IMG/VR virus record: IMGVR_UViG_3300015203_000006
Coordinates: 1 to 44,299 of that record
DNA length: 44,299 nucleotides
Direction: 5' to 3' (one strand)
From: a virus
Part shown: piece by piece, positions 1 through 44,299 of the stretch
Position numbering within the stretch: position 1 is the first letter of the stretch
How the letters are laid out: each line of letters begins with the position of its first letter
Made by a program: the position numbers and the translations under genes
Notes under the pieces: model-generated
The model's database searches: none
What the model was told of the DNA's origin: nothing
What the model saw: the letters and a program-made list of their open reading frames with translations, nothing else

Positions 1-291
1 TCCCTGGCAGCGTCCCTGGCAGCGGCCCCGGCAGCGGCCCAGGTAGCGTCCCAGGCAGCGTCCCTGGCAGCGTCCCTGGCAGCGTCCCTGGCAGCGGCCC
101 AGGTAGCGTCCCAGGCAGCGTCCCTGGCAGCGTCCCTGGCAGCGTCCCTGGCAGCGTCCCCGGCAGCGGCCCAGGTAGCGGCCCAGGTAGCGTCCCAGGC
201 AGCGTCCCTGGCAGCGGCCCCGGCAGCGGCCCAGGTAGCGTCCCAGGCAGCGTCCCTGGCAGCGTCCCTGGCAGCGTCCCTGGCAGCGGCC
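1..291. repeat. Tandem 12-nt repeat array, 24 units (window-start copy)
   Basis: Read directly. Units are A=tccctggcagcg, B=gccccggcagcg, C=gcccaggtagcg, D=tcccaggcagcg, E=tccccggcagcg, in the order AABCDAAACDAAAECCDABCDAAA, followed by gcc. There are no spacers. The array lies in frame inside a minus-strand ORF. Confidence 0.97.
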
Positions 292-728
292 GCCTTCGTT
301 CTGGCGTTCCTCACCACTGGACCCGCTGCCGTCGCTGCGACCATGTCGGCGATCCGGCGGAGCCCCCGCAGCTCGGCTGCCTCCACCGTCAACCCAGCGA
401 GATCGAGCCATGCTGGGGTGTAGGTGCGGATCAGCCAGTCCAACGCAAGGTAGGACCGTGCCTCGTCCTGCCCGTCACCGGCGGTGCCCACGATCCTGGC
501 GGCGTAAGGCAGCAGGGTTTGTCGTTGCTTATCGTTCCACTGGTCGTTGAGGTTCATCGTGTATGAGCGCAGGACCGGGGATACGCATGGCGGGTTGTCC
601 GTGTGGAGGCGGCCGGCGAGCCAGGCTGCGACTTCGTTGATGCAGTGCCCCTGCTCGAACGTGGAATGTGCTCCGTTGTCGAGGTGGAGGGTGGGGAGCT
701 GTGCGAGACGCTCGGGTTGGATGGTCAT
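1..728 (-). CDS. Tetrapeptide-repeat protein: N-terminal domain plus repeat tract (open at window start; C-terminus at 44299..43921 if the molecule is circular)
   Basis: Absent from the ORF track because it is open-ended. The ATG at 728 overlaps the TGA of the upstream gene (ATGA). Manual translation: [148 protein letters not shown], then [20 protein letters not shown] units with no stop down to position 1. Confidence 0.75.
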
Positions 729-1198
729 CGGGTTCCGCTTTCTGTGCGTCCGGCGAGGGCGGCGTCGTGGGCGCGGATACTCGCCCACTCGATGCCGGCG
801 GCGACGTGGTGCAGGATGCTGAGCGAGCTGGCCTGGTCGTGGGCCCGGGCATGGGCATGGCAGAGCTCGTCACCTTCGACGGTGACCACCGAGAATGATT
901 CGCAGTAGTGGCATTGCTCGGGCAGGGTCGTGGCCTCATACAGGTCTCCGCCGAAGGCCTCAGCCTGGGACGGGGTCAGGGTGACGGTGAATGTGTCAGC
1001 CCAGGCCCGTTCGAGGGCCGCGGTGTACAGGTCGGTTTCCGGTGCGCCGGGTTCGAGGTGGTGGAGTGCGACGAGGTTCCCGATCTGCGCCGGGGTGAGC
1101 TGGGCAGCGAGGGCCTCGATGATCGGGCCCGGGTCCAGGGTGATTTCGATCGACCACGTATCAACATCAACAATCTGTTGAACCGTGACGGGGTTCAT
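725..1198 (-). CDS. Hypothetical protein, 157 aa
   Basis: ORF track gives 725..1252. The preferred ATG at 1198 overlaps the stop of the HNH gene (ATGA). Contains a CxxC...CxH-like motif (QCHYCESF...ELCHAH). No family recognised. Confidence 0.65.
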   Translation of the reverse strand: MNPVTVQQIVDVDTWSIEITLDPGPIIEALAAQLTPAQIGNLVALHHLEPGAPETDLYTAALERAWADTFTVTLTPSQAEAFGGDLYEATTLPEQCHYCESFSVVTVEGDELCHAHARAHDQASSLSILHHVAAGIEWASIRAHDAALAGRTESGTR

Positions 1199-1755
1199 GA
1201 CGCACGCTCCGCACGCCAGCGGGCAACATTTATCCTGTTGCACTCCCGGCAATACCGTGAACCCCTGTAGATACGAGTGTTGGCCTCGGTGTATTCGTGT
1301 CCCTGTGGGCAGTGGGTGACTGCTGATTCGGCGCTGACATTCCGTCCTTTGCTGTACATGTCTTTGTTGTTATCGGCTTGTGTCCCAAGGAAGAGATGCT
1401 CGATGTCGTTGCACGGCGGGTTATCACAGTGGTGAAGGACGTGGAGCCCGTCAGGGATCGGGCCGTTGGCGAGCTCCCACGCGAGGCGTGTTGTCTTGAC
1501 CGTCTTGTGGTCGACTCTGATCTGCCCGTAACCGTCTCTGGTGGTGCTGCGGGTCCATTCGAGACAGCCATTCGGTTGACGGACCAGTCCAGCGGCGAGG
1601 CGCTCGGCGGGCGAGAGCGCAGGTAGCGGTTCAATCTCTCCATGTCTTCGCATGTATGTGTAATGAGCTGAGCACATTCCGCGCGACGCGACGCTCTTGG
1701 CGCAGTCCTCCACGGAACAGACGGCGGCTTGGGCGGGTGCGCTGGTGCTGGTCAT
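1195..1755 (-). CDS. HNH homing-type endonuclease (paralog 1 of 4)
   Basis: 186 aa. N-terminal CSVEDC...GMCSAHY zinc knuckle, then GYGQ. HNH core is HVLHHCDNPPCNDIEHLFLGTQADNNKDM. C-terminal ribbon is HCPQGHEY..N..CRECN. Same architecture as 31348..31905 and 38453..39046. Confidence 0.9.
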   Translation of the reverse strand: MTSTSAPAQAAVCSVEDCAKSVASRGMCSAHYTYMRRHGEIEPLPALSPAERLAAGLVRQPNGCLEWTRSTTRDGYGQIRVDHKTVKTTRLAWELANGPIPDGLHVLHHCDNPPCNDIEHLFLGTQADNNKDMYSKGRNVSAESAVTHCPQGHEYTEANTRIYRGSRYCRECNRINVARWRAERAS

Positions 1756-1829
1756 TGCTATGCTCGATTCCGTAGATGTTGAGCAGCGGTTCTCTTTGCG
1801 GGGGCTGGCGTTTCGCTGTGTGTGGTGGG

Positions 1830-2336
1830 TTAGGGCTTGAATGCGCCCGATTCGACTGCGGCGCCGAATGATCCGAACAAGGTCACCGCGGGCAAAGCCC
1901 GGTCGTAGTCCTCACGCCATGCGGTGTAGGCGATGTTGACGACGCTGACGTTGCGGTACCGCAGCCGGTCCATCTCCATGAGGTCGACAAGGAGGATGAA
2001 CCGCAGTGGTTTCCGTTTGCCCTCGCCGAGAGCGACGACGACGTCCATGCCCGGGTCGTTATCGAGGTCCAGGGCATCCTCATCGCGCATCGACCTGGCC
2101 ATGACCTTGTCCGCGCTGCCACTATCAGCCGCGTCGGCCTTGTCTATGGCTGCGTTGATCGCGGTGTCGATCGGGACCTTGAGGTCACCGGCGTCGATGT
2201 GGGCGCGGATGCGTTGTGCGGCAACGAGTTTCGCGTCGGCTTTCGTGGTCCCGTCTGTGGGGTCGCATGCCGCGATGACCTCGCGGTAGACCTCGCGGAC
2301 CTTGATGTCCCAGTCGTAGAAGAAGTCTTCAGACAT
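1830..2336 (-). CDS. Hypothetical protein, 168 aa
   Basis: ORF-track ORF. The ATG at 2336 overlaps the upstream stop by 8 nt. Acidic protein; no family recognised. Confidence 0.7.
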   Translation of the reverse strand: MSEDFFYDWDIKVREVYREVIAACDPTDGTTKADAKLVAAQRIRAHIDAGDLKVPIDTAINAAIDKADAADSGSADKVMARSMRDEDALDLDNDPGMDVVVALGEGKRKPLRFILLVDLMEMDRLRYRNVSVVNIAYTAWREDYDRALPAVTLFGSFGAAVESGAFKP

Positions 2337-3066
2337 TGGCCAGCTCCATCTCCGCGGCGTAGGTGATCAGCGCGTCCGCGAGATGGCGGATGGTGGCCGG
2401 GGTGTGCAACTCCCTGTTGTGTGGGGTTGCGCCAAGAGCGCCGGTCTTCCACGCCTGCAGTACGCGGGCGCGGTGCTCGGGGACCATCAGCCCTTCGAGG
2501 GAGCCCAGTGCGAACCCGAAGTTCTCACAAGCCTTCTCGGCGTCGTACTTGGCCAGGGCGTCGCCTTCGAGGACCGGCTGCTGTGTGCGTCGCGCCTTGA
2601 CTGGGGGAGGATCGGCGGCAGGCGTCGGCTCGGGTATCGGCTCAGCCTTGGCTGGCTCCGGCTTCGGTGCGACTTCCTCGCGGGCCTCGCTGATCGTCTT
2701 GGCTGTGACTTTGCCGCCGGACTCATGGGCTTTGACCATGACCTCAGCCGCGACCTCGGGTGTGAGGCCGGTCAGAGCGCGGGCTTGACCCTCGTTGGCG
2801 GGTAGCGGAGTGTCGCCAATTGGCGACATCGCGTCGACGGTCTGCGCCGCGTCCATCAGTCGGTACGCGCGGCTCGGGCTAAAACTCCAACGGTCCTGGC
2901 AGTAGTCCTCGAAGGTCGAGTAGTCCTGGTAGTAGAGCCGCTGGGCACCGATCGCGGTCAGTTCACGGCCGACGTCGAGGAAGGTCCGCAGCCCGCGTTC
3001 GATGACCTCTTCGCGACGGGCTAGGTCGGCGTCGACGGCGGCGTCGCGGACCGTGACGACTGTCAT
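2329..3066 (-). CDS. Putative DNA-binding protein (ParB/KorB-like HTH motif), 245 aa
   Basis: ORF track gives 2329..3444, but the first 126 aa are Arg/Pro-rich shadow sequence. The ATG at 3066 overlaps the stop of the upstream gene (ATGA). The motif YSTFEDYCQDRWSFSPSRAYRLMDAA resembles the HTH of phage ParB/KorB-like proteins. A Pro/Ala/Glu-rich linker follows. Confidence 0.6.
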   Translation of the reverse strand: MTVVTVRDAAVDADLARREEVIERGLRTFLDVGRELTAIGAQRLYYQDYSTFEDYCQDRWSFSPSRAYRLMDAAQTVDAMSPIGDTPLPANEGQARALTGLTPEVAAEVMVKAHESGGKVTAKTISEAREEVAPKPEPAKAEPIPEPTPAADPPPVKARRTQQPVLEGDALAKYDAEKACENFGFALGSLEGLMVPEHRARVLQAWKTGALGATPHNRELHTPATIRHLADALITYAAEMELANV

Positions 3067-3266
3067 GACGCGACTGGCGTGGCGAGTTCTGGGAACCAGT
3101 TGCGAAGGGTCTGACCTCGGATCGGGACGCCGGTGGTGTTGTCGAGGACTCGGGCGATGGCCTCCCACGACGCGCCACTGTTGCGGCTTGCTGTGACGTA
3201 CTGTGCGAGGGGTTCGGAGAGCCGGGCCTCGATGAGTTGGTAGCTGCGGGTCTGATCCGGGTTCAT
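3063..3266 (-). CDS. Cro-like early HTH DNA-binding protein, 67 aa (start uncertain)
   Basis: ORF track gives 3063..3344 from a TTG. The first 25 codons have poor third-position GC, so the ATG at 3266 (MNPDQTRSYQLIE...) is preferred. HTH-like segment: ASWEAIARVLDNTTGVPIRGQTLRNWF. Transcribed divergently from the repressor. Confidence 0.55.
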   Translation of the reverse strand: MNPDQTRSYQLIEARLSEPLAQYVTASRNSGASWEAIARVLDNTTGVPIRGQTLRNWFPELATPVAS

Positions 3267-3357
3267 GCCTCGTAGATTGGCATATCCAATCTGATTGTGC
3301 AACCCGTTTACCCACTCGTTCGCAAACGGCTTGCCAAATGACAATGGTTAGCCCATC
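3267..3357. promoter_or_regulatory. Divergent switch region between Cro-like gene and repressor, with a 19-bp palindromic operator candidate
   Basis: 91-bp locally AT-richer intergenic region. Perfect palindrome agattgg-catat-ccaatct at 3274..3292, abutting the Cro-like gene start. TTGCCA at 3331..3336 is a possible -35 for the plus strand. The promoter hexamers are not convincing by eye. Confidence 0.5.
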
Positions 3358-3705
3358 ATGGGCGACATGAGTACACAGAGGCACGAGCACCGGGACGTAC
3401 CCGCAGACACGTTCGAGATGCGCCTGGCCATGGCGCGCTTCCATGCTGGGAACATCTCAGCCAACGAGGCCGCGCTGCGCGTCGGAGTGAACGGTCAGAC
3501 ATGGCGGAACTGGGAGGCGGGCACCAGCCCGGGTGCTCACCAGCCTGCGATGCTCGCGTTCATCGCGCAGCAGCTCGGAGTGGACCAGGATTGGCTACGC
3601 AACGGCGGCCCACTCAGCAACCCGGACTCGCCCAATTCTCGCCCTGATGCCGATACCGTTGAGTATTCGCACCGGCGCAGGCTCATGCTCGCGCCTGCGG
3701 CCTAG
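3358..3705 (+). CDS. Immunity repressor, XRE-type HTH, 115 aa, with Ala-Ala C-terminus
   Basis: HTH_3-like segment FEMRLAMARFHAGNISANEAALRVGVNGQTWRNWEAG...IAQQLGVDQDWL. Low-complexity tail PLSNPDSPNSRPDADTVEYSHRRRLMLAPAA. Its TAG overlaps the integrase start (TAGTG). Confidence 0.8.
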   Translation: MGDMSTQRHEHRDVPADTFEMRLAMARFHAGNISANEAALRVGVNGQTWRNWEAGTSPGAHQPAMLAFIAQQLGVDQDWLRNGGPLSNPDSPNSRPDADTVEYSHRRRLMLAPAA

Positions 3706-4565
3706 TGATGTCCGCCACAGTCCTACCTTTCAACGCGGCGTGTCGCTTGCCAGCGGTCCACGATGCCGCTATGAGCAGATTCACAGGTTTCGAGCCGTGG
3801 CTACGAGCGAACAACTGTGGTGACAGCACCGTCCACTACCGTCTCGCGCACCTAAGAGACTTCGCAGCCCACCATCCGCGGTTCCCGAACGTCACCCCGG
3901 GTGAGATCACGAACTGGCTCGGACGGATCGGCTACATGCCGTGGAGCCGAGCGACGTTCTACGGGCATTTGAGGTCCTACTTCACGTTCGCCATCGACGC
4001 CGGGATCGTCACCGTCGACCCGATGGCCAGGATGCGACGGCCCAGGCAGGGCAAGAGTGTCCCCCGCCCGTTGAACCCGGCCCAGGTCCGGACGGTGATG
4101 GCTGCGAGGAACGCGAACGTCCGGGCATGGCTGACGTTGGCGCTGTACGCGGGGTTGCGTGCGCACGAGATCGCGAAGATCCGGGGGGAGGACGTTGAGG
4201 AACGCCAACTGTACGTGGTGGGCAAGGGCGGCTCTGAGGCGTACCTGCCGACGCACCCGCTGGTCTGGGCGCTGGCGTTGGAGCGGCCCGCTGCGGGTTG
4301 GTGGTTCCCGACGATCGCCGACACAGGGCATGTGTCTGCGCGGTCGGTGTCGGCGATCACTGGTCGGGTGTTCGCTGCTAACGGGATCGAGGGGAGTATT
4401 CACCGCGGTAGGCATACCTACGCCACCGAGCTTCTGCGGGCCGGAGCCAACGTCAGGGTTGTGCAGACGCTTATGCGTCATGCGTCTTTGCAGTCGACGA
4501 TGGTCTACACGGCCGTCGACGAGGACGAGCGGCGGGACGCGATCGCCCTGCTCCTGGCGGCGTGA
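3705..4565 (+). CDS. int: Tyrosine integrase
   Basis: Box I: LTLALYAGLRAHEI. Box II: HRGRHTYATELLRAGANVRVVQTLMRHASLQSTMVYTAV (H-x-x-R ... Y). Start is GTG 3705 or ATG 3708. C-terminus is ...RRDAIALLLAA. Confidence 0.95.
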   Translation: MMSATVLPFNAACRLPAVHDAAMSRFTGFEPWLRANNCGDSTVHYRLAHLRDFAAHHPRFPNVTPGEITNWLGRIGYMPWSRATFYGHLRSYFTFAIDAGIVTVDPMARMRRPRQGKSVPRPLNPAQVRTVMAARNANVRAWLTLALYAGLRAHEIAKIRGEDVEERQLYVVGKGGSEAYLPTHPLVWALALERPAAGWWFPTIADTGHVSARSVSAITGRVFAANGIEGSIHRGRHTYATELLRAGANVRVVQTLMRHASLQSTMVYTAVDEDERRDAIALLLAA

Positions 4566-4639
4566 TGTTCGACACGATCCGGGGCCGCGACCCGCGTAAC
4601 CGGTTAGGTTCCGTCCACTACCACCATCGAGGGATCACC

Positions 4640-5041
4640 ATGAACCGCAGGTTCGCAGTCGCTGTAACCGTCCTACTCGCCGCTGGCAGCCTGACCGGGT
4701 GCGGTGGTGGCGGGACGAAGGTTGACACCTCGTCTGCGTCGGCCATAGCCGCGGCGATGGACAAGGGCGGGTTCACCTGTACGGGGTGGAAGGCGAACCC
4801 GGCAGCAGTCGGTCCGAAGGAGTCGGGTAGCTGCGACCACGGCGGGACTGCTATCACGGTGTCGACGTTTGAGAGCGCGGATCAGATGAAGCGGGTCGTT
4901 GACTCGATTTCTAAGGCGTTTGGTCAGGACCCGGCGGCCAGTGGTACGGGGGCTGTGATTGGGGATGCGTGGATGGTTACGCCGGGCGACGCGTCGCAGG
5001 GTGCCGCGATCCAGAAGATCATCGGCGGGACCGTCAAGTAA
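4640..5041 (+). CDS. Secreted lipoprotein, 133 aa, in the lysogeny module
   Basis: The ORF-track ORF 4562..5041 is trimmed to the ATG at 4640, which follows a gaggga SD. Signal peptide plus lipobox: MNRRFAVAVTVLLAAGSLTGCGGGG. Same strand as the repressor and integrase. Confidence 0.8.
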   Translation: MNRRFAVAVTVLLAAGSLTGCGGGGTKVDTSSASAIAAAMDKGGFTCTGWKANPAAVGPKESGSCDHGGTAITVSTFESADQMKRVVDSISKAFGQDPAASGTGAVIGDAWMVTPGDASQGAAIQKIIGGTVK

Positions 5042-6377: not shown

Positions 6378-7175
6378 TTAGTGGGCGTTGAGGTAACGCT
6401 GCAAAGCGGCGTAGGTCTGCGGGCCGGGGATGCCGTCCTGCGCGGAGCCGACGAGGCGTTGGATTGCTTTCCATGTCAGCGGCCCAGGGTTGCCGTCAGC
6501 TGTGACCCCGACCTTGCGTTGGATCGCGGCCCAGGACACCGGCCCGAGGACCGAGTCCGCAACAACGCCGGCCCACTGTTGCAGCCGCATCCGGGTCTGC
6601 GTGCCGAATGCTCCGTCGACTGTGAGGACGACCCGCCCTGTTGGTGTTGGGGGGTGTGGGACGGGTGGCAACGGTTTCCCGCCGCGTAGGGTTTGGGCTC
6701 GGGCGATGATCGCGGGGCGTTGCGCTTGCCGCACTGGCCCGCAACACGAGTGCCCGCCATAGGCCTGCCCACCCATGCTGTGGACCCCGACGCCGCGCTC
6801 GCCGGGGGCGTTGGCCAGGAGGTCTGGGGTGCTGAGGAAGTTGTGCCAGGTCGCGAGGGTGTTGATTTGTGCGGGGGTGTAGGGCTCGTTTGGGTACCCT
6901 TCGCATTCGAACGCGTGGTAGGACGCGTTGCCTGCGCCTTGCGCCCAGGGTTCACGGTTGAGTTCGGTGTACTGCTCGCTGTGGCCGTCTTTGGTGACCC
7001 ATGCGGTGGAGAATTTCCGGTTGGGGCTGACCGCGTGCTCGAAGTAGGCCCAGAGGGAGCCGTTGCCGACTTGGACGTGGCCGATCCATCCGATGGGTTG
7101 GCCGGGGGTGAAGGTGCCGGCTTCGGCGCGGTAGGTGATGGGGCGCCAGGCGGCGCCGGGTAGGTAGAGGTTCAT
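6378..7175 (-). CDS. Endolysin: N-acetylmuramoyl-L-alanine amidase-like domain plus C-terminal peptidoglycan-binding repeats
   Basis: N-terminal region has His/His/Cys candidates (GWIGHVQVG ... GVHSMGG..GGHSCCG). C-terminal PG_binding_1-like repeats: DGAFGTQTRMRLQQW, LGPVSWAAIQRKVG, DGNPGPLTWKAIQRLVG, DGIPGPQTYAALQRYL. Confidence 0.8.
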   Translation of the reverse strand: MNLYLPGAAWRPITYRAEAGTFTPGQPIGWIGHVQVGNGSLWAYFEHAVSPNRKFSTAWVTKDGHSEQYTELNREPWAQGAGNASYHAFECEGYPNEPYTPAQINTLATWHNFLSTPDLLANAPGERGVGVHSMGGQAYGGHSCCGPVRQAQRPAIIARAQTLRGGKPLPPVPHPPTPTGRVVLTVDGAFGTQTRMRLQQWAGVVADSVLGPVSWAAIQRKVGVTADGNPGPLTWKAIQRLVGSAQDGIPGPQTYAALQRYLNAH

Positions 7176-7250: not shown

Positions 7251-7361
7251 TCAGGCGAGTTGGCGGAGGATGACCGCGAGAGCGAACACCCCACCGGCGA
7301 AAACGCCCAACGCGAAGTAGGCGTGTAGTGCCCGCCGGGACGGGGTGGGAGGCAGGGTCAT
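7251..7361 (-). CDS. Small membrane peptide, 36 aa
   Basis: Not in the ORF track. The ATG at 7361 overlaps the stop of the upstream gene (ATGA). Peptide MTLPPTPSRRALHAYFALGVFAGGVFALAVILRQLA has one TM segment. Confidence 0.45.
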   Translation of the reverse strand: MTLPPTPSRRALHAYFALGVFAGGVFALAVILRQLA

Positions 7362-8119
7362 TTGTGGATGAACAGCGCGGCGAGGCTGATGCCGACAGCG
7401 AGGGCCAGGAGGAACGTCCCGACCATCATGTTGATATCCGTACGTTTCTCAGCGCCCCCCACCCCCCGACCTTGAGAGTTCGCCTGAGCAAGCGCCAACG
7501 TGGCGATGGCATCAACCAACGGTTTCATGTCCGCAGCGCTGTCCCGGGCCACAACCACCTGCTCACGGCCTCCGCGTTTCTCGGCACGCAACTCGGACAG
7601 CTGCAGCTTGATGTCGTTGAACCCCACCGCGAGCCCGGCGATGCCGGTGGTGAACGTCTCACCCTGCTGATCCTGACGCTCCTTGGACGCCTCCTCAGCT
7701 TTCGTGGTCGCCAACTGGGACGCGATGGTCTGCTGGTCCCTGGCCTTCTCCGCGGCGGCCAGGGCTGCCTGCACGGCTTTCTCCGCGGCGATCGTGGCGG
7801 TCGTCAGGGTCTTCTCGCCGTCGGACTTCAGCTCAAGGCGGTGCGTCTCACTGTCAGATTTCAACTCACGGCGGTAGCTCTCACGGATGTCGATCTCCCG
7901 GCGGATAGACGCGACCCGTTCCGCGCTCATCTCTTTGTCGCCGGCAAGGCGGGTCTCGATCAATTCTTGGAGGCTTGCGTGTTCGCGCTGCCGGATCTCA
8001 GCGCGGGTGACTAGTTCGCGATCGCGGGCGGACTCAGATTGTGTGAGGGCTTCCATGGTCCGGTCTGTCGGATCTGGGTCAGGTCTAACTGTTTTCGGTC
8101 CTATGGGGTCGACCATCAC
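7358..8119 (-). CDS. Tail-anchored coiled-coil membrane protein, 253 aa
   Basis: Long Glu/Arg/Ala-rich coiled coil. C-terminal TM is MMVGTFLLALAVGISLAALFIHK. Strong SD (gagaggaggaccgtg ATG). Confidence 0.75.
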   Translation of the reverse strand: MMVDPIGPKTVRPDPDPTDRTMEALTQSESARDRELVTRAEIRQREHASLQELIETRLAGDKEMSAERVASIRREIDIRESYRRELKSDSETHRLELKSDGEKTLTTATIAAEKAVQAALAAAEKARDQQTIASQLATTKAEEASKERQDQQGETFTTGIAGLAVGFNDIKLQLSELRAEKRGGREQVVVARDSAADMKPLVDAIATLALAQANSQGRGVGGAEKRTDINMMVGTFLLALAVGISLAALFIHK

Positions 8120-8200: not shown

Positions 8201-9577
8201 TCAGACCTTGGAGACGGAGATTCCTGAGACTGTGACCGTGCCACCAGAGAGGTTCGTGGAGCGGAAACCCAGTTGTGCGTAAAGCATGTCGATGGCGCTG
8301 GCGTCGGCAGCCGTTGCCGGGAGGGTGAACTTCGTACTGGTGAGTGTCACGTCACCGGAGGCCGCCACGTCCGGCCCAGTCAGGCTCGACTCGAAGGACG
8401 AGGGCTCGGTCCCTGTTTGACCAAACGTGTTGTTGGTCGCGTTGAAACTGCCGCTGGCTGCTGCGCGGAAACTGAACAGCATGTAGGGCGAGAAGTTACG
8501 CATCGCCGCAGACCAGGTGAGCCCCGACCAGCGGAACCGTGCCCGCATCTGCAGCCGGTCGCCGATGTGGATACGTGGGCCGAAGGTCTCCGCGTAGGAC
8601 CACTGGACCCCGCCAGCCGCCACGGTCGCAGTGGCGAGGTTGCCGATCCCGTCAGGGTCACGGGTGTACGTTCCCGCGGTGCCTATCTGCAACGCCCAAC
8701 CGGCACCGTTGGTCAGCATCGACTGGTTACCAATACCGACCAGAGCATCGGTGTCCGCGTAGCGCAGCAGCGGAGCCGGTGATGCGTAGGGGCGCATAGC
8801 GTTGGCCACTTGCACACCGACCCGGTAGGCGCCACCGCTGCCGGGGTGGATGATGTTGTCAAAGGTCATCGGCGTGTTAGCCATCCCGGTTGCTGGGTCT
8901 ACTAGCACCGAGTACGCGTCAGCGACCACCAGCCCCTTGCGGGTCAGCGGCAACGCGGCGATCCACTGGGAGACCTGGGCGGCGATCTGCTTGCGGCTGG
9001 TCGTGGAGTAGGAGTTCGACGGCCAGGTGGTCACGATGCAGCACTTGCGACCTGCGGCGTCGATGGCGTTCAGGATCGTGGTCAGGTCCGTGGTGATCGC
9101 GGCGAAGGTCCGGTCAGCGGCCACGTCATTGCCGGACTCCTCGACCACAACCCATTCGCTCGGGTAGTTGGTCAACTCGGTGCTGATGCGAGCAGCGAGA
9201 GCGCTGGTCTGCTCGCCACCCACACCACGCACTGCTACGACGGAGTAGCGCTCTCCCATGAGCCAGTTCGCCCAGTTGAAGAAGCCCCGCGCCGAGTAGG
9301 CATCTGCGACGTCAAGGAGGTTGGACATTCCGCACTGCGCGGTGATCGAGTCACCCACCAGCAGAACCGTTGGGCGCATCCCAGCCCGCGTCAGATAGGT
9401 CGCATTAGCTGACGCCGTGTCGATCAGGTAAGGCAACACGTTCCACGCGGTCACACCGTCGCCGCGTTTCGTCTTCCCGGTGTCGGTCTCGAATCCGAGC
9501 TCACCCACAGCCAGGACCGGGTTAGACGCGGCCGCGGCGGCGGCGGTGTTGCGGCGCGGCTGAATGGTGATGCTCAC
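8201..9577 (-). CDS. Tail fibre/minor tail protein with an SGNH (GDSL) hydrolase domain, 458 aa
   Basis: N-terminal fibre motif LAVGELGFETDTGKTKRGDGVTAWNVLPY. SGNH blocks: LLVGDSIT (I), VRGVGGEQT (II), ESGNDV (III), DNIIHPG (V). The GTG at 9577 overlaps the upstream stop. Confidence 0.8.
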   Translation of the reverse strand: MSITIQPRRNTAAAAAASNPVLAVGELGFETDTGKTKRGDGVTAWNVLPYLIDTASANATYLTRAGMRPTVLLVGDSITAQCGMSNLLDVADAYSARGFFNWANWLMGERYSVVAVRGVGGEQTSALAARISTELTNYPSEWVVVEESGNDVAADRTFAAITTDLTTILNAIDAAGRKCCIVTTWPSNSYSTTSRKQIAAQVSQWIAALPLTRKGLVVADAYSVLVDPATGMANTPMTFDNIIHPGSGGAYRVGVQVANAMRPYASPAPLLRYADTDALVGIGNQSMLTNGAGWALQIGTAGTYTRDPDGIGNLATATVAAGGVQWSYAETFGPRIHIGDRLQMRARFRWSGLTWSAAMRNFSPYMLFSFRAAASGSFNATNNTFGQTGTEPSSFESSLTGPDVAASGDVTLTSTKFTLPATAADASAIDMLYAQLGFRSTNLSGGTVTVSGISVSKV

Positions 9578-13957: not shown

Positions 13958-14806
13958 TCAGCTCCAGGCCCCGGAGTAGCCCCACACGGATAGCAGCGCC
14001 GCAGGATCAGATGTGTCCGCGGTCCAGACAACAGACCCGCCACCGGGTGGCACCGACAACCAGTCACCACCCCAAGACACCGCGTTCCGCACCGACACCT
14101 GCCCCTGCAACAGGACACTCCGGGCGGCCATGTCCAGGTCGAGCCACTGCCCGGCGACCAGCGACCCGTTGTACCGCACCCACGCACCCGTCTCCACCAC
14201 CGTTACGACAGGGTTCAGAACCGGGCCGTCGATCCGCAACCTCGGCCAGTACGACGCGGTCCCGGTGTTCGCGACCGACACCGCGCCCGGGGTCGTACCC
14301 GGGGCGATGCCGTAACTCAACGGGTACGCGAGCGGGTACACCCTGCCCGCGCCCGGCGTCGCAGTCGACAGGGTCGCAGTGCCGAACGTCGGCGCCCCGT
14401 ACTTCAACGGGTCAGGGGCGACGACCTGCAACGTCCACTCGAACGCCGTCTCACCGAACCAGGTAACCTTCGCGCCGATCGTGACGCGGGTCCACGCCGA
14501 CAACGTCCCGATCGAGGTGCTGTCAACGACGAGCTCCTGGAGCTGGTTCGGGCGGAGCGCGGCGAGCTGCTGACGGGTCTGGTGTGCGACCGCTGGTGTT
14601 GCTTCCTCGACGAACCCGGCAAGGTCGATGACCCGCTCAGCGTTCAGCCCCGTGCCGTCCCAGGAACCGTCCTGCTGTGATTTCGGGATCGACCCGGGGC
14701 GGATACCGGCGGCGTTGTCCCACCCGGTCATGTCTGTGACAGCCCGGTGGGATATGCCGTCTTCGATGTCGAGGAGTAGCCCGCCCAGGGTGCAGGTGTT
14801 CGTCAT
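13958..14806 (-). CDS. Distal tail protein (Dit-like), 282 aa
   Basis: Lies immediately downstream of the tape measure gene (ATGA overlap). Its N-terminus TLGGLLLDIEDGISHRAVTDMTGWDNAAGIRP...ERVIDLAGFV is typical of siphovirus distal tail proteins. Confidence 0.7.
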   Translation of the reverse strand: MTNTCTLGGLLLDIEDGISHRAVTDMTGWDNAAGIRPGSIPKSQQDGSWDGTGLNAERVIDLAGFVEEATPAVAHQTRQQLAALRPNQLQELVVDSTSIGTLSAWTRVTIGAKVTWFGETAFEWTLQVVAPDPLKYGAPTFGTATLSTATPGAGRVYPLAYPLSYGIAPGTTPGAVSVANTGTASYWPRLRIDGPVLNPVVTVVETGAWVRYNGSLVAGQWLDLDMAARSVLLQGQVSVRNAVSWGGDWLSVPPGGGSVVWTADTSDPAALLSVWGYSGAWS

Positions 14807-17800
14807 CGGATTCCCGCCCCGAGCCTGTGGTCGACCGATGCTGCGACGCCGCGGCCGTCGAGGCCGATCTGCACCCGGGTCATGGCCTGCGCGAGTTTGT
14901 CGTAGTCGAACCCGCCGCCGAGTTTGTCGATTGGGGTGACTGTCTCACCGCCCCTGAAGTTCACGAGTTCCTTGCCGCGGTCACCGACCCATGCGTACCC
15001 GGGCGCGGCGTAGTCGGTGCCGTTGGCGTACCAGTTCACCCGGTTGGAGTGCTCGTACGCCGCAGCCGGTGACCCGTACCGGGACCGGATGTAATTCAGG
15101 CCCCACGCGATTTGCCCGGCTGCCCCACCGTGCATGTTTCCGGTGATGTCTTGGGGGATACCTGCCGCGCCCGATGAGCTGTTCCGGGCGTTGGAGTTCC
15201 AACCGCTTTCCCGGTTCCACAACGCTTTCAGCGGTCCCCACTGGTTCGCGCCCCAACCTGCGGCGAGCATCATCCTCAACCCGAGTGCCTGGTTCGCCCC
15301 AGATGTCCCACCACCCGAGAACCCCGCTAGCAGCCCACCCAGACCACCACCCCCGCCGCCGGGGCCCGTATCAAAGTGGGCGTGGTTGAAGTGCCCTGCG
15401 ACCCTCCACAGGTGGTGCAATCCCCAGTTGCTGGACATCGCCACGGCCCTGTCGAGGTACGCAGGTTCGGAGCCTTGGTCGTGGTTCACGTCGATGGCAC
15501 GTCCGACGTAGTGCAGCGAGTTCCGCGCGTGAGCGCCCGGGGTCACCCCACCAAACGCGGGGTGCTCAGAGACCTGGTATTGGAGACCCTGCAGCATCCG
15601 GCCGAACGCGATCAGGTTCGCGATACTCCCCCCACCAACCCCGCCGCCGCCAGCAGCGCCGGCCGCGGCCATGGATGATTTCATGATGGTGCCGAGGTTC
15701 GCGATGTACGCGGCGACGATCCTCGCGTCGTAGGACTGTTTCAGGACTGCGGGGTTCGCCAGGGATGTTGAGATGATGGGTCCGCCGGCGGCGTAGCCCC
15801 GCAGTTGTTTGCGGTAGGCGAAGATCGCGGCGTGGCCGCCTGCGGCTGCGACTTCTTGGGCTGTGAGGACGTGTTCGCCGTTGGAGCCCATGAATGGGAC
15901 GTCGTCGCTGGTCCCGGTCCCCATGCCGATGATGGGGCCACCATTGAACAGCCCCTTGGGTCGGGGTCCGATGCTCACGCCGGGCGCCCAGTAGTTCTGC
16001 CCGTTCGGCAGTTGGCCGAGGACTGAGGTCGCGAGCTTCGCGGTCACTGTGATCTTCGGGTTTTTCGTGATCCCTGCGATGGCAGCGTTGACTCCGGCGG
16101 CAAAGCTGTCGAACTTCACAGCGGCGGCGTGAAGTTGTGGTCCGATGCCCGGGATCCACCCGAATGCGCGGTCGGCGGCGTGGAGGATACCGCCGGCCAT
16201 GACCAGGAAGGATCCGACCACGGCCTTCAGCACTGTGCCAGTGACCGTCTTCCACCAGTTGAACGCGTCGACCAGTTTGCCGACGAGAGTGATCACCGAT
16301 GAGATGCTTTGGCCGATCCCGGTGAAGGCAGCCTTGAGGACGGGGCCGATGATCGGCATGACTTTGGTGACCAGGAAGTCCACGTAGACCTTGAACCCAT
16401 CACCCAGTTGCTTCAGTTCGCCTTTGTTGTCCTTGAACGCCTGTGTGACGTTCTTCACTGCGGTTTGGATCCCTTCCCATGCCTGCTTCAGGACCCCTTG
16501 CAGGATCGGGACCAGGGTGTCCTGGATCCACTGCCACAGACCTTTGAGCGCAGGTAGGAGCTTGTTCTGGACCCAGTCATGCAGGGTCTTGGAGTGGTTG
16601 TACCAGTCCGTGAAGCCAGTCACGACCCCGCCGATAGCGATGATGGCCAACGCAATCCACTGCCCTGACAGCGCCGCCGCGATCGCGCCGATGGCGATCG
16701 CGACAGCCGTGATCTGCGTCGGGCTCATCTTCGCCAGCTGCGCGGCGAGCCTCCCAAGAACGTCAAGGATCACCGAGCCCAGCGGCGCCAGCCCAATGAT
16801 GAGGTCCGCCGAGACCTTCAGCAGGTCCTTCAGCAGCCCCCACACCTTCGGGCCGTTCTCCGCGAGATACGCCATGAACGCCTTGAACCCCGACGACCCG
16901 GACAGGTTTTTCGCCCAGTCAGCGAAAGACTTCGCCAACCCCGCGATGACCCCCATGACCGTGTCGCCCACCGGCGCGAACGCCATCAGCAGCCCCGCGA
17001 ACCCCGTGGCCAGGTCACCAAGGATCTGACCGAAAATCCTGATGTTCGGGCCGACCGTGGAAGCCAAGAAGTTGAAGAAGTCGCGCCAGAACGGGGCCTG
17101 CAACGCCTTCCCCGCGGCGGCAAACAGGTCCCCGAGGGCACCTGCGGCCGCACCGATGATCCGGTTGAACACCGGCATCAGAGGCGTCAACTCTTTGAAG
17201 AAAGTCGTCACCCCCGGCAGCAACGCGCCCTGCGACGTCGCTTTCAACCGGTCGAGCTCGGGCTTCAACGAGTAGATGAACTTCGCGAAGTCCCGCCCAG
17301 CCGGGGACAGCTTGTCCATCGCCTGCTGCAACGCGGTCCCCGCCGCGGTCCCCGCAGTCGAGGTCTTCGCCATGGCCTGCTGAACCTGCCGCTGAGCCGA
17401 CGCGACCGACGCCGCTGAAGACGCTGCAGAGTTCGCCTGCGCCCGCAACGCCTTGGTAACCGACTCCTGCGCGATGGCCACTCTCTCAGCGCCGCTACGG
17501 CGGGCCTCAACCTCAACGGCGACAGCCCGTGCGACGCTCTCAGCCCCGGCACGGCGGGCCTCAACAACAGCAGCCTCCGCACGAGACACCTTCTCAGCCC
17601 CGGCACGGCGGGCCTCAACAACAGCAGCCTCCGCACGGCCAAGCGCGGTCTGCGCGTTCGCCACACCCGTCACCGACTTGGCCACACCCGCCTGCGCGGC
17701 AACAACGTTCGCCGCACCAGCCACGCCAGCCTTATCGGCCACAGCCTTCTGCGCAGCCAACCGGCCCTGCCGGGTCGCCAGATCGGTGACCTGCTGCAAC

Positions 17801-19041
17801 GCCTGGTCGTAGGCAAGCTGTGCCTGCTCACGCTGCAAAATCGTGCCGCCGGACTGCGCGGCAAGGACCTGCTGTTTCTGCTCGGCAGCCGTCAACGCCT
17901 GCTGCGCCGAAAGCCTCGCCACAAGAGCGGACTTACTGTTTCTCATCACCGCGTCCAAGCGGGCGTGAGCCACCGCCGTCGCAGACACCGACGCCGCGTA
18001 CTGGGCGCTAGAAGGACCCAGGTTACCCAGGGCCGACCTGGTCTGTTCGACGTTGAGGTTCGCCTGGCGTTGCGCCAAGACCCCGTCCGCGACGCTATTA
18101 GTCAAGTCCTCAATGGACTGCTTGGCTGCGACCCTGGCCTGGGTCAATGCCAACTGTGCCGTGCGCGCCGAGTCCTGCGCGGTGACCAGCGCCTGCTCGG
18201 CGCCCATCTGAGACTGGACCGCCGTAGCGACGCCTTGGGCTGCAGAGCGGTGAGCATCCGACGCTGCCAGGACCGCAGCAGCAACACCGCGGTCAGCGGA
18301 GCGTTGAGCATCCGCTTCCGACAGGATCGCAGCGGCGATCCCCGCCGCTGCGGACCGCTTCGCATCGGCCACACCCCGCTCAGCATCGATGACCGCCTGA
18401 GCCGACGAGATAGCCGACGCCGCCGCGGTGCGCTCAGCGTTAGCCAGGGACGACTGCGCGTTGGCGATGGCGTTGGCCTGAGCGACCCGCGCCGCCGCCG
18501 CGGCGGCCCCTGATGCCGCCGACGTCGAATCAGCTTTACCCAAGGCGCTCACGGCATCGCTGACACCGGAGAACCCGAGGAACAGGGCACCCAACGCAGG
18601 GCCAGCAGACAACGCCGCCGAACCGATACCCAGGATCGCTGCGCCGGCCGCGGCCGCAACAGGGATGATCGCCGGGCCCAAAGCCAGACCGGCAGTGAGC
18701 AACCCGGACATCCCACCGCCGGCACTGTTGGCGCTGGCACCCACAGCGGCGAGCTTCGCCTCAGCGCCACCGGTGTCCACGTCGACGTTGACCTTCGCGT
18801 CACGGCGACGCGTCAGCTCGTCAATGTGGGCTGCGGCGCCCGCCGTGTCCGCATCCACATTGACCGTCAAGATCCGGCCGCGGGTCAGCTCGTCGATGCG
18901 CGCCGCAGCCGCAGCAACATCCGCGTCGACCTTGATAACCGCCGAAGGCAACCGCGACAAGTCCGCTTTCAACCGCTCATTGAACCGTGAAGCGTCCGGG
19001 ACGACATCGACACGAACAGACCCGACATTGATCGAAGACAT
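14803..19041 (-). CDS. Tape measure protein, 1412 aa, with two embedded cell-wall hydrolase motifs
   Basis: Largest ORF, Ala-rich coiled coil with central hydrophobic segments. Transglycosylase-like motif WNRESGWNSNARNSSSGAAGIPQ near 15200. LAS-type metallopeptidase motifs SLHYVGRAIDV (H-x6-D) and HFNHAH, near 15370..15520. Confidence 0.95.
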   Translation of the reverse strand: MSSINVGSVRVDVVPDASRFNERLKADLSRLPSAVIKVDADVAAAAARIDELTRGRILTVNVDADTAGAAAHIDELTRRRDAKVNVDVDTGGAEAKLAAVGASANSAGGGMSGLLTAGLALGPAIIPVAAAAGAAILGIGSAALSAGPALGALFLGFSGVSDAVSALGKADSTSAASGAAAAAARVAQANAIANAQSSLANAERTAAASAISSAQAVIDAERGVADAKRSAAAGIAAAILSEADAQRSADRGVAAAVLAASDAHRSAAQGVATAVQSQMGAEQALVTAQDSARTAQLALTQARVAAKQSIEDLTNSVADGVLAQRQANLNVEQTRSALGNLGPSSAQYAASVSATAVAHARLDAVMRNSKSALVARLSAQQALTAAEQKQQVLAAQSGGTILQREQAQLAYDQALQQVTDLATRQGRLAAQKAVADKAGVAGAANVVAAQAGVAKSVTGVANAQTALGRAEAAVVEARRAGAEKVSRAEAAVVEARRAGAESVARAVAVEVEARRSGAERVAIAQESVTKALRAQANSAASSAASVASAQRQVQQAMAKTSTAGTAAGTALQQAMDKLSPAGRDFAKFIYSLKPELDRLKATSQGALLPGVTTFFKELTPLMPVFNRIIGAAAGALGDLFAAAGKALQAPFWRDFFNFLASTVGPNIRIFGQILGDLATGFAGLLMAFAPVGDTVMGVIAGLAKSFADWAKNLSGSSGFKAFMAYLAENGPKVWGLLKDLLKVSADLIIGLAPLGSVILDVLGRLAAQLAKMSPTQITAVAIAIGAIAAALSGQWIALAIIAIGGVVTGFTDWYNHSKTLHDWVQNKLLPALKGLWQWIQDTLVPILQGVLKQAWEGIQTAVKNVTQAFKDNKGELKQLGDGFKVYVDFLVTKVMPIIGPVLKAAFTGIGQSISSVITLVGKLVDAFNWWKTVTGTVLKAVVGSFLVMAGGILHAADRAFGWIPGIGPQLHAAAVKFDSFAAGVNAAIAGITKNPKITVTAKLATSVLGQLPNGQNYWAPGVSIGPRPKGLFNGGPIIGMGTGTSDDVPFMGSNGEHVLTAQEVAAAGGHAAIFAYRKQLRGYAAGGPIISTSLANPAVLKQSYDARIVAAYIANLGTIMKSSMAAAGAAGGGGVGGGSIANLIAFGRMLQGLQYQVSEHPAFGGVTPGAHARNSLHYVGRAIDVNHDQGSEPAYLDRAVAMSSNWGLHHLWRVAGHFNHAHFDTGPGGGGGGLGGLLAGFSGGGTSGANQALGLRMMLAAGWGANQWGPLKALWNRESGWNSNARNSSSGAAGIPQDITGNMHGGAAGQIAWGLNYIRSRYGSPAAAYEHSNRVNWYANGTDYAAPGYAWVGDRGKELVNFRGGETVTPIDKLGGGFDYDKLAQAMTRVQIGLDGRGVAASVDHRLGAGIR
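17485..17637. repeat. 54-nt in-frame tandem repeat (about 3 copies) inside the tape measure gene
   Basis: The 45-nt block ctcagccccggcacggcgggcctcaacaacagcagcctccgcacg is identical at 17539..17583 and 17593..17637. A diverged copy starts about 17485. It encodes 18-aa units (AEAAVVEARRAGAExVxR). Confidence 0.85.
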
Positions 19042-30606: not shown

Positions 30607-31134
30607 TCACCTCCTGACGCGCGGCGCCCGCTTTGCTTCCGCTCTGCGATCGTTCGCACGCTTACATTCGAGGCAGGTCCGTGACCCGCTTGTGCCGACG
30701 TACCAGGATTCTGGTCCGGTGATGTCGTGAAGTCCGTTCTTGCAGAGCGTCCGCAATGGGGTGAACCCGAGTAGCCCACGCTCGATATTCAGTCCTTGGG
30801 GGACAGCTTCGAGGTGGTTGGGGTTCACACATGCCGTCACGCGACAGAGGTGGTCGAGCACTAGACCATCGGGGATGGCGCCCTTGAACGCCTCATAGAC
30901 GAGCCTGTGTGCCATCTGGTTGGGGTGGCCGTATCGGCCGTAGCCGTAGGTGTTGAATGAGCCGCGCCAGATCCAGCACTCGTCCGGTGAGCCGATGTCG
31001 TAGAAGTCTGTTACCGCGCCTGAGATTCGCGTCTGGTTGAGGTGGCCGTGTCGCTTGAATCGCATGTAGTGCTTGTTGCACAGACCATGCGCCTTGATGG
31101 TGCCGTCACATTCGCTCTCTGAGCACGTTGCCAC
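30607..31134 (-). CDS. HNH homing-type endonuclease (paralog 2, most divergent), 175 aa
   Basis: CSESEC...GLCNKHY knuckle and YGYGRYG. Core is VLDHLCRVTACVNPNHLEAVPQGLNIERG. C-terminal ribbon is CKNGLH...CLECKR. GTG start. Confidence 0.85.
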   Translation of the reverse strand: MATCSESECDGTIKAHGLCNKHYMRFKRHGHLNQTRISGAVTDFYDIGSPDECWIWRGSFNTYGYGRYGHPNQMAHRLVYEAFKGAIPDGLVLDHLCRVTACVNPNHLEAVPQGLNIERGLLGFTPLRTLCKNGLHDITGPESWYVGTSGSRTCLECKRANDRRAEAKRAPRVRR

Positions 31135-33637: not shown

Positions 33638-34242
33638 GGTTCGACTTCTCCAGGTTTCGTTGGGGTGGGCCTACCTGTTTGAGGCGGTTCTGAGGCCGGG
33701 TGGTCACTCAGTACCGGATCAGGGGTTTTCTCAGCCCCAGGGCGGATGGTGGCGGCTTCCTGCCCTGTTCCAGCGCCCGTCGTCTCCCCGAGCGCGGCAC
33801 GGATCTCACTCAGTCGCATCAAGCCCATGCCGTCGGACTGGTACTCGTCACACAGCGCCCGGACGCGTTCGACCGTGGCGCGTAGCTGGTCGCGTTCCTG
33901 CGCGATGACTGCCGTGATCGCAACGCCGTAGGTGCTGATCCCACAGATCGGGTTCTCACCCTTGGTGACCTGGTCCTCTCCGTGACGACGGATGACCTCT
34001 CGGTGGAGCGCCACAAGCCGGTCATGGTCGCTCTGCATCGGTGCGTAACGGCGTTGACACTCATCCACAGCCTCATGGATCCGCAGCCGCAGTCTCTGCA
34101 CCTCGGCGCGTAGCTGGTCGCGTTCTTTCTCGGCGCGGGCCTTGGCTTTGAGCGCGGCGGTCAGAGTCCTGCGGGCGTCCACGACCCGCGACGGCGCGGA
34201 TGGGCCGGCGAGTGCGTAGGCGTCCTGGCCCTGGTTGGTCAT
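33634..34242 (-). CDS. Coiled-coil hypothetical protein, 202 aa
   Basis: The track ORF 33634..34269 is trimmed to the ATG at 34242 (ATGA overlap with the upstream gene). Repeated ERDQLRA(E/T)V(Q/E)R(L/V)R segments. Confidence 0.7.
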   Translation of the reverse strand: MTNQGQDAYALAGPSAPSRVVDARRTLTAALKAKARAEKERDQLRAEVQRLRLRIHEAVDECQRRYAPMQSDHDRLVALHREVIRRHGEDQVTKGENPICGISTYGVAITAVIAQERDQLRATVERVRALCDEYQSDGMGLMRLSEIRAALGETTGAGTGQEAATIRPGAEKTPDPVLSDHPASEPPQTGRPTPTKPGEVEP

Positions 34243-41383: not shown

Positions 41384-41493
41384 TGGAGGTTCACCCAGCC
41401 TTCCGCCGAGCACCCGACGCAGTGAGCCAAGTCATGCGTCAGACCGCGCGTGACCCGGACCGGGCCGCCAGTGCATCCGAGGAAATGCGTCAT
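41380..41493 (-). CDS. Small ORF, 37 aa
   Basis: Not in the ORF track. ATGA overlaps at both ends. Peptide: MTHFLGCTGGPVRVTRGLTHDLAHCVGCSAEGWVNLQ. Confidence 0.5.
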   Translation of the reverse strand: MTHFLGCTGGPVRVTRGLTHDLAHCVGCSAEGWVNLQ

Positions 41494-42269: not shown

Positions 42270-42433
42270 TGGCCTGCCAGGTTCTCGAGGTCGGCTTGTC
42301 CGGCTTGGAGGTCAGACAGGAGCGTGATCAGGTCGGACTCGTCTAGCTCAATGCCGGGATAGCCGCGACCCTCGTGGGGGTGGTACACCGTGACGGTCCC
42401 GTCCTCGCGGTCAATGGCGTAGCTCAGGGTCAT
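42266..42433 (-). CDS. Small ORF, 55 aa
   Basis: Not in the ORF track. It overlaps the exonuclease stop and the annealing-protein start by 1-4 nt. Peptide: MTLSYAIDREDGTVTVYHPHEGRGYPGIELDESDLITLLSDLQAGQADLENLAGQ. Confidence 0.55.
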   Translation of the reverse strand: MTLSYAIDREDGTVTVYHPHEGRGYPGIELDESDLITLLSDLQAGQADLENLAGQ

Positions 42434-43281: not shown

Positions 43282-43562
43282 TATGCGACCCACCGCTGGG
43301 CTTGCTGCTGGATCCGCGCTGAGTGGTCCGCGCAGACGTAGAGGACCCGGTCGGGTCGGGCCGCGGCGTACACCGATGTGACGGGTTGGTGGCAGCTGGT
43401 GATGTCGCAGGTCTGCCCGGCCGGTTGGGTGTTGTGCCGGGTGGTGTCGGCGCGGTTGCCGCGGACCCGTTGGACGACCCAGATGGCGGCGGCGGTGAGG
43501 GTGGCGATGACGGCGGGGGTCCAGCCGATCCAGTCGGTGACCATGCCGGGCGCGGGACTCAT
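43281..43562 (-). CDS. Membrane protein, 93 aa (one TM)
   Basis: ORF-track ORF. TM segment is WTPAVIATLTAAAIWVV. ATGA overlap upstream. Confidence 0.65.
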   Translation of the reverse strand: MSPAPGMVTDWIGWTPAVIATLTAAAIWVVQRVRGNRADTTRHNTQPAGQTCDITSCHQPVTSVYAAARPDRVLYVCADHSARIQQQAQRWVA

Positions 43563-43924
43563 GACGGGTCCTCGTCGTCGTTCATGGTGCTACTGAGTGC
43601 GTACATCCAGACCCAAGAACTCCCGTCGACATAGAGCCGAGGGAAGTCCCAGATGTTCTGCTCGGGCCGGTCCACAAACCGAACCTGTTCGATCGGCAGC
43701 CCGGGCATCTCGATCTCGTGAGTCTCGCCATCTGCTGCGATCTGGTAGATCCATCGGCCGTCGCGCTCGGGAACCTGTGAGGAGTTGATGCCGTCGAGCA
43801 TCCGAACGGTCTTCGCGCGACCTGTCGCCATGAGATCGAGGGCGAACCGCGCGATATTGGCGTCGGCGTTCTCGCGAGTGGCGCCACGCACCGGACCACT
43901 GCCGGGGTTGATGAAGATGGTCAT
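43559..43924 (-). CDS. Hypothetical protein, 121 aa
   Basis: ORF-track ORF. The ATG at 43924 overlaps the TGA of the repeat-protein gene (ATGA). Confidence 0.7.
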   Translation of the reverse strand: MTIFINPGSGPVRGATRENADANIARFALDLMATGRAKTVRMLDGINSSQVPERDGRWIYQIAADGETHEIEMPGLPIEQVRFVDRPEQNIWDFPRLYVDGSSWVWMYALSSTMNDDEDPS

Positions 43925-44299
43925 GGGGTCACCGCTGACGGGTTGATCATCTTGTCGAGCAGGGTCAGCGCTGATTCTTGGAGGGTGGTGACGGTCGGCG
44001 CCAGAGCGTCCCTGGCAGCGTCCCTGGCAGCGGCCCCGGCAGCGGCCCAGGTAGCGTCCCAGGCAGCGTCCCTGGCAGCGTCCCTGGCAGCGTCCCCGGC
44101 AGCGGCCCAGGTAGCGTCCCAGGCAGCGTCCCTGGCAGCGTCCCTGGCAGCGTCCCTGGCAGCGTCCCCGGCAGCGGCCCAGGTAGCGGCCCAGGCAGCG
44201 TCCCTGGCAGCGTCCCTGGCAGCGGCCCCGGCAGCGGCCCAGGTAGCGTCCCAGGCAGCGTCCCTGGCAGCGTCCCTGGCAGCGTCCCTGGCAGCGGCC
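43921..44299 (-). CDS. Tetrapeptide-repeat protein: repeat tract plus C-terminal tail (open at window end)
   Basis: Manual translation in the same unit register as 1..291: ...([24 protein letters not shown])n ALAPTVTTLQESALTLLDKMINPSAVTP, with stop TGA at 43923..43921. Not in the ORF track because it is open-ended. Confidence 0.75.
   Translation of the reverse strand, partial: AAARDAARDAARDAAWDATWAAAGAAARDAARDAAWAATWAAAGDAARDAARDAARDAAWDATWAAAGDAARDAARDAAWDATWAAAGAAARDAARDALAPTVTTLQESALTLLDKMINPSAVTP
44009..44299. repeat. Tandem 12-nt repeat array, 24 units (window-end copy)
   Basis: Unit order is AABCDAAECDAAAECFAABCDAAA + gcc, with F=gcccaggcagcg. It differs from 1..291 at only three single nucleotides (units 8, 16 and 17). 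The last 27 nt are identical to the first 27 nt of the window. Confidence 0.97.

Follow-up and report, generated by a model that had tools for sequence, protein, structure and literature searches.

The repeat gene and its surroundings

The window, that is the whole stretch of 44,299 nucleotides analysed here, has a G+C content of 64.6% and carries at its two ends the parts of one minus-strand gene built around a tandem array of 12-nt units (Table 1). The gene starts with an ATG at 728-726, which forms an ATGA overlap with the stop codon of the ORF at 725-1252(-), in agreement with the translational coupling proposed in the initial annotation; it then crosses the window ends, and its remainder (43921-44299) lies past the coordinates first given. 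The product consists of a unique N-terminal domain (N-domain, MTIQPERL...) of 147 aa, where about 145 aa had been estimated, followed by AAxx tetrapeptides encoded by the 12-nt units, among them AAGD and a single AAWA, and by a unique tail of 28 aa (ALAPTVTTLQESALTLLDKMINPSAVTP) that continues the frame of the array at the opposite end of the window. As had also been noted, the TGA of the repeat gene (43923-43921) overlaps the ATG (43924-43922) of the ORF at 43559-43924(-). TRF reported one 12-nt array at 1-288/291 (24.0 copies, 90% matches, score 408) and a second at 44005-44296 (24.3 copies, score 423), and the list of units in the gene's frame confirmed that the repeats are in-frame. In line with a single translated gene with two unique ends, the frame is kept into the conserved tail in 49 of 80 related IMG/VR loci (L001-L080) and in 84 of 120 database homologues. 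At one of the 80 loci (L031, 6001-6435), the array is read in a Pro/Gly frame (PGPPPGPPP...) and meets an early stop, which points to a pseudogene with a frameshift or else to faulty assembly. The assignment to an early operon near recombination genes was borne out as well, an exonuclease and a RecT-like annealase being located two small ORFs downstream.

Table 1. Repeat gene and neighbouring features in window coordinates
Feature	Position	Strand	Evidence
Upstream ORF, 175 aa, without family match; TGA overlaps the repeat-gene ATG	725..1252	-	
Unique N-terminal domain, aa 1-147	288..728	-	translation, AF2, homologues, gp54 N-domain homology
Array, N-domain-proximal, 24 AAxx units	1..287	-	TRF, unit list, codon table, overlap analysis
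Array, tail-proximal, 24 units and a partial one	44008..44299	-	TRF; 99% identical to 1-291, offset 4 nt
Conserved 28-aa C-terminal helix ALAPTVTTLQESALTLLDKMINPSAVTP and TGA (43923-43921)	43921..44007	-	family consensus, AF2
Downstream ORF, 121 aa, without family match; ATG overlaps the repeat-gene TGA	43559..43924	-	
Exonuclease, phrog_298, same operon, further down	42433-43293	-	context only
RecT-like annealase, phrog_3290, same operon, further down	41490-42269	-	context only

Contig ends and array length

The first and the last 99 nt of the window are exactly identical (1-99 and 44201-44299), and positions 1-291 and 44009-44299 are 99% identical, with three mismatches. Given the identical ends, the window appears to be an entire circular contig, with 44,200 unique bases, that was cut inside the tandem array and written out with its k-mer overlap. 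The array had initially been read across the window ends as one gene, and the common frame upholds this; the end overlap had been missed, so the array length differs from that of a simple join. Owing to the 99-nt duplication, a naive join counts 33 codons twice and makes a spurious 15-nt unit (REAAARD), and the resulting linker of 202 aa (2 mod 4) goes against the family rule, by which 82% of the linker lengths in 84 complete homologues (17-97 aa) are 1 mod 4. When the 99-nt overlap is removed, the array has 40 units and the protein 335 aa, with a linker of 169 aa (1 mod 4). When both ends are taken as one array seen twice, there are 24 units in a protein of 271 aa, with a linker of 105 aa (1 mod 4).

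Because of the near-identity of 1-291 and 44009-44299, the copy number is uncertain: it may be 40, 24, or larger if the assembly collapsed copies. We prefer the 40-unit reading, since a clean cycle produces an exact terminal overlap. The merged array contains 14 repeated 91-mers and no repeated 99-mer, and its longest internal exact repeat, determined by hand from the mismatch positions, is 98 nt, one nucleotide under the terminal overlap of 99 nt, so the array is only just resolved. Sequence from outside the record came from Logan contig ERR4837134_30930 (L085; run ERR4837134), which was reached via the HNH protein, is 100% identical to window positions 262-4755 and breaks off after 30 nt of array sequence. 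Megablast of window positions 289-4000 had no match among cultured phages, nor was the same phage recovered from IMG/VR or the JGI metagenomes by exact-pattern scans, and three of four exact-protein look-ups of neighbouring proteins were likewise without a match.

It is less probable, but a serious alternative, that the long array is mostly a product of the assembly, the true array having either about 24 units that were walked twice via strain variants or a larger number that was collapsed. Consistent with this are the mere three differences between 1-291 and 44009-44299, the barely resolved array, the break of the otherwise identical Logan contig, the termination of 30 of the 80 IMG/VR relatives within the array, and the linker of 105 aa that 24 units would give, which is near the family maximum of 97 aa. 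Against it, the exact 99-nt terminal overlap is expected of a clean circular path, 40 units amount to a plain tandem duplication of a 16-unit (192-nt) block, and the array of mycobacteriophage Tweety, with 48 units, is longer still; nor does the 1 mod 4 rule favour it, since both 24 and 40 units obey it. The alternative touches only the length of the array, the existence of which is not in doubt.

The GenBank gut scaffold MT835534 (L086, 1-433) also ends inside its array. The array is thus a systematic breakpoint of short-read assembly and could, as such, create false circularity; this affects completeness calls of short-read viral assemblies as well as any count of repeat number.

Composition and evolution of the array

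On the coding strand the unit reads GCT GCC AGG GAC, and the window units vary at nt 4, 7 and 11 only. Each amino acid is encoded by a single codon throughout the window array (GCT at position 1, GCC/ACC at position 2, AGG/TGG/GGG at position 3 and GAC/GCC at position 4), every difference between units is non-synonymous and the third codon positions are invariant. In the 40-unit reading, position 1 is Ala in 40 of 40 units and position 2 is Ala in 32 and Thr in eight. The array is thereby written in a closed set of about six 12-nt unit types, in which the changes fall on codon positions 1 or 2 of residues 2-4. The near-identity of the units and their higher-order pattern, both described initially, were recovered, the latter as additional TRF periods of 60 and 72 nt.

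A survey of 49 related arrays with 10 or more units each (together 901 units, from L001-L080) revealed the same two variable sites: nt 7 (R/W/G) varies in 48 of the 49 arrays and nt 11 (D/A) in all 49, while each of the other positions varies in 0-15 arrays and 25 arrays vary nowhere else. Between arrays, the hexamer encoding Ala-Ala occurs in 13 versions, and the Arg codon is CGG throughout in 24 arrays and AGG throughout in 21, the two never being mixed within one array; the Asp and Ala codons of position 4 are also mostly uniform within each array. Synonymous sites are therefore homogenised inside an array and different between arrays, a sign that a closed alphabet of about six units has undergone concerted evolution. 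This speaks for units being shuffled, gained and lost, and against ongoing point mutagenesis. Homogenisation within arrays is as expected from slippage or unequal recombination. The proposal of a VNTR-like locus agrees with this homogenisation in each array and with a copy number that differs widely among relatives.

Diversification of the array by targeted mutagenesis of the DGR type, instead of by unit shuffling, appears extremely improbable. The master unit GCTGCCAGGGAC has just two adenines, which coincide with the hypervariable nt 7 and nt 11, as such a mechanism would predict. However, the adenines of GCA Ala codons are invariant where these codons are used (e.g. L001, L032, L035, L037 and L041, and the GCC GCA of Tweety), CGG and AGG never occur in one array, and the scan of ORFs yielded no reverse transcriptase. 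On the strength of the GCA adenines that never vary and the missing reverse transcriptase, in addition to the unmixed Arg codons, we exclude adenine mutagenesis of this kind and retain shuffling, gain and loss of units as the likely source of variation.

A further in-frame tandem repeat with a copy number that varies between isolates is variable region 2 of bbp36 in Bordetella phages BPP-1/BMP-1 (cited in PMC2884959); its element is 24 bp long (a 19-bp repeat and a spacer) and lies in a different protein, and it is likened to the window array by description.

Predicted structure

AlphaFold2 (AF2) models of the 271-aa and 335-aa readings were built from an alignment of 87 sequences and reached whole-model pLDDT values of 86.6 and 86.4. 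The N-domain, with a pLDDT of 96-98 over residues 1-100, is predicted to be a well-folded, alpha-helical domain of about 130-147 aa, and the tail helix has a pLDDT of about 95. The array forms two long helices in each model (residues 129-187 and 195-264 in the 271-aa reading, 129-227 and 236-328 in the 335-aa control), and the turn between them is in both cases the Gly-containing unit nearest to the array midpoint. We infer from the models that the array may fold back on itself as a single long antiparallel hairpin of helices, a stalk that brings the tail back toward the N-domain; unit number would then set the length and the surface pattern of the stalk, not the distance between the protein ends. 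The hairpin could also be an AlphaFold compaction artefact in which the turn merely tracks the midpoint. Structure prediction, which had been proposed as a check on the N-domain and the repeat, yielded a confident N-domain fold and a helical array, but Foldseek provided no match in the PDB (best E 3.8), and its matches in BFVD were uncharacterised phage proteins only.

Several protein families with short-period or Ala-rich segments were compared with the window protein. Short in-frame tandem peptides are also present in pentapeptide-repeat and collagen-like phage proteins, and both were rejected: the window period is 4 residues (12 nt) as against 5 or 3, the models consist entirely of helices and display neither a beta-helix nor a triple helix, and there is no Pfam match. 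The AxxxG-GxxxG glycine repeats of FliH/YscL proteins are reported to form a long helix with small residues recurring every four positions. The repeat of Tweety gp54 gave sub-threshold matches to FliH models of NCBIfam (48 bits against a cut-off of 180), and neither the window protein nor its N-domain gave any FliH match; with scores so far under the cut-off, this is a likeness of composition, not homology. Another lead was Imm5 and Imm5_like (PF14423, PF21805), which we take to be putative immunity proteins having an Ala-rich helical region with W/R. It was rejected, as the window protein has no Pfam match and one of 87 family members matches Imm5_like with an E-value of 0.9.

Relatives of the window protein

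The homologue search and repeat tabulation suggested in the initial annotation brought up a very large family. The N-domain has 490 close database homologues and matches 4,816 representatives of 50%-identity clusters (E <= 1e-3). Nearly all of 60 close homologues examined have the same three-part build of N-domain, AA[RWG][DA] units and tail, the last with the family consensus L.PTVE.LQASALDLLDRMIDP, and the complete genes in 49 of the 80 IMG/VR loci carry 5-34 in-register units. Three homologues depart from this build: P0205 is extended by about 260 residues at its N-terminus, P0136 lacks an AAxx array while keeping the N-domain, and P0130 has a degenerate array rich in Ala, Ser and Val. In two relatives examined in detail, the gene follows the integrase/repressor region and lies among small early genes.

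Cultured phages hardly carry this subfamily, a tblastn search giving Ralstonia phage RS-CA1 and the gut scaffold MT835534 only. Neither the window protein nor its N-domain has a match in Pfam, NCBIfam or PADLOC-independent family searches, and the same is true of 87 homologues and of gp54. Since there is no Pfam model and the homologues in cultured phages are labelled 'hypothetical', annotation of these genes could be improved.

Homology to mycobacteriophage Tweety gp54

The repeat had initially been set apart from known pentapeptide-repeat and collagen-like phage proteins, but the architecture of the window protein has a precedent: it matches the published description of gp54 of mycobacteriophage Tweety, a protein with 40-48 AAxx repeats between unique termini, and the N-domain is homologous to that of gp54. 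Gp54 has unique N- and C-termini around tetrapeptide repeats with an invariant Ala-Ala, the 12-bp units of which vary at non-third codon positions only, and the repeat number is 48 in Tweety, 26 in Che8 and 15 in PMC (Pham et al. 2007, PMC2884959). Tweety mutants that escape defence map to gene 54 and have more or fewer repeats, and such repeat changes tune gp54 against the defences of Phrann gp29/gp30 or of the MichelleMyBell prophage (reviews of the same laboratory: PMC9262239, PMC8549241). The statement that the function is simply unknown was thus likewise superseded, since gp54 has a genetically demonstrated counter-defence role tuned by repeat number; its mode of action was termed obscure by its discoverers (PMC8549241).

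In a BLASTP comparison, the window protein and the gp54 N-domain share 27% identity over 148 aa (E 1e-4; aligned full length). A profile of the family aligned to gp54 by hhalign with 96.3% probability (E 1.8e-9, 119 non-repeat columns) and to a four-sequence profile of gp54-type proteins with 96.1% (E 2.9e-9). Both proteins match phrog_13065; gp54 itself belongs to phrog_3416 (E 1e-142), for which the window protein has a borderline E-value of 0.0073 over residues 1-214. Residues kept in gp54 include His21, Cys29, Asp44, Pro46, Cys48, Asn61-Asp62 and a VGTAG motif.

Like the window protein, Tweety gp54 (phrog_3416), Che8 gp57 and PMC gp51 consist of a unique N-terminus, an AAxx array encoded by 12-bp units and a unique C-terminus, and in both groups the repeat number differs between members. 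Tweety gp54 further shares with the window protein the homologous N-domain, the variation of the array at codon positions 1-2 of residues 3-4 (nt 7, 8, 10 and 11 in Tweety) and the location among the early genes of a temperate actinophage. The two differ in the low identity of their N-domains (27%), in their alphabets (R/W/G and D/A with some Thr at position 2 in the window, G/W/Q and S/Y in Tweety) and in their C-terminal regions, which comprise 28 aa in the window (L.PTV..LQ.SA..L...MI) and 38 aa in gp54 (LIEFTRQAIARWRELAGLD...) and are not similar (local alignment z = -1.2; unaligned by hhalign). Judged by these sequence comparisons, the window protein is a divergent relative of the gp54-like tetrapeptide-repeat proteins and not a new kind of protein. 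The dissimilar tail marks a distinct subfamily rather than an exclusion from the gp54-like proteins, because the literature defines the family by its architecture.

Few phage counter-defence genes have been shown to be tunable by mutation, and Tweety gp54 is one of them, yet it has been treated as an orphan: in dbAPIS, gp54 (YP_001469287.1) is a single seed without homologues (PMC10767833), whereas we found the gp54-type N-domain in 173 cultured phages (155 of Mycobacterium and 18 of Gordonia), all examined matches being annotated as 'hypothetical'. Its link through the N-domain to a very large, unannotated metagenomic family would offer more material on how repeat number sets specificity. This link, the two-site grammar of six units with its concerted evolution, and the array as an assembly breakpoint go beyond the literature covered.

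Proposed function of the repeat protein

Taken as a whole, we consider it fairly probable that the repeat locus is most of an early gene in a circular contig of a temperate phage, lying across the point at which the contig was cut, and that it encodes a divergent relative of gp54. With similar, moderate confidence we propose on the basis of distant homology and shared architecture that the product is an early counter-defence protein whose specificity may be retuned by gain and loss of 12-nt units; for its functional part, this proposal depends on a single domain with 27% identity, and against it stand the differing tails and repeat alphabets of the two proteins and the obscure mode of action of gp54 itself. 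If it acts as gp54 does, the product would be made early and would neutralise a defence encoded by the host or by a prophage, and gain or loss of units would retune which defence is blocked, providing the phage with a rapidly mutable counter-defence. The genomic setting resembles that of gp54: in temperate actinophage-like genomes, the gene follows the integrase/repressor region. The role of the N-domain may be broader or different, as suggested by an array-less homologue, gp91 of Gordonia phage Smoothie, and by the homologue in the lysis cassette of Ralstonia phage RS-CA1.

A rather unlikely alternative is that the protein belongs to the same superfamily and does another job, the N-domain being a general early-phage module linked to the RecE/RecT recombination cassette (e.g. 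a host-nuclease inhibitor or an accessory factor) and the array a stalk of variable length unrelated to the tuning of defence. Such a role would fit the position of the window gene two small ORFs upstream of the exonuclease and RecT, the presence of array-less N-domain homologues between RecE and RecT in Gordonia phages Smoothie (gp91; L088, 1180-1704) and WilliamBoone (gp89; L090, 1171-1707), and a DUF3799 exonuclease located within 1 kb after the gene in L084. However, when the window neighbours were compared by tblastn with the 80 related loci, the exonuclease was matched in one, RecT in two and a DUF3799 protein in 10, and with so few matches linkage to recombination genes is not general at BLAST sensitivity. 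Moreover, Tweety gene 54 has no annotated RecET neighbour, and the net charge of the array is near-neutral, not acidic as in DNA mimics.

A lysis- or envelope-associated role is very unlikely. It is suggested by the RS-CA1 homologue (XDQ96087.1; L081, 3995-4651), a proteobacterial-phage protein of the same architecture whose gene is flanked by endolysin and holin, but the endolysin-like gene of the window (6378-7175) is distant and part of another module, no obvious signal peptide or hydrophobic transmembrane stretch was seen in the sequence, and in the actinophage relatives examined the gene lies in the early region.

Extending the preferred counter-defence reading, the subfamily might constitute a widespread, programmable counter-defence platform, in which a helical hairpin stalk is spelled out in six unit types (R/W/G x D/A), with slippage rewriting the length and stripes of the stalk to match different host defences, across thousands of soil actinophage-like clusters, a Ralstonia phage and a gut scaffold, with gp54 as one branch; in this broad form we regard the idea as unlikely.

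Other features of the window

A tyrosine integrase is encoded at 3705-4565, on the strand opposite to the repeat gene, and two HNH endonucleases are present (1195-1755(-) and 30607-31134(-)), one of them upstream of the repeat gene. The window further contains a tail-fibre N-terminus fused to a lipase/esterase domain (8201-9577(-)) and a PAPS-reductase-like gene (34239-35045(-)). Other tandem repeats were observed within ORFs: 54-nt repeats at 17479-17637 (2.9 copies) and 18239-18354 (2.2 copies) inside a 1,412-aa ORF (14803-19041(-)) that is presumably the tape measure gene, and a 33-nt repeat (2.2 copies) at 7813-7884 inside an ORF without a family match (7358-8119(-)).
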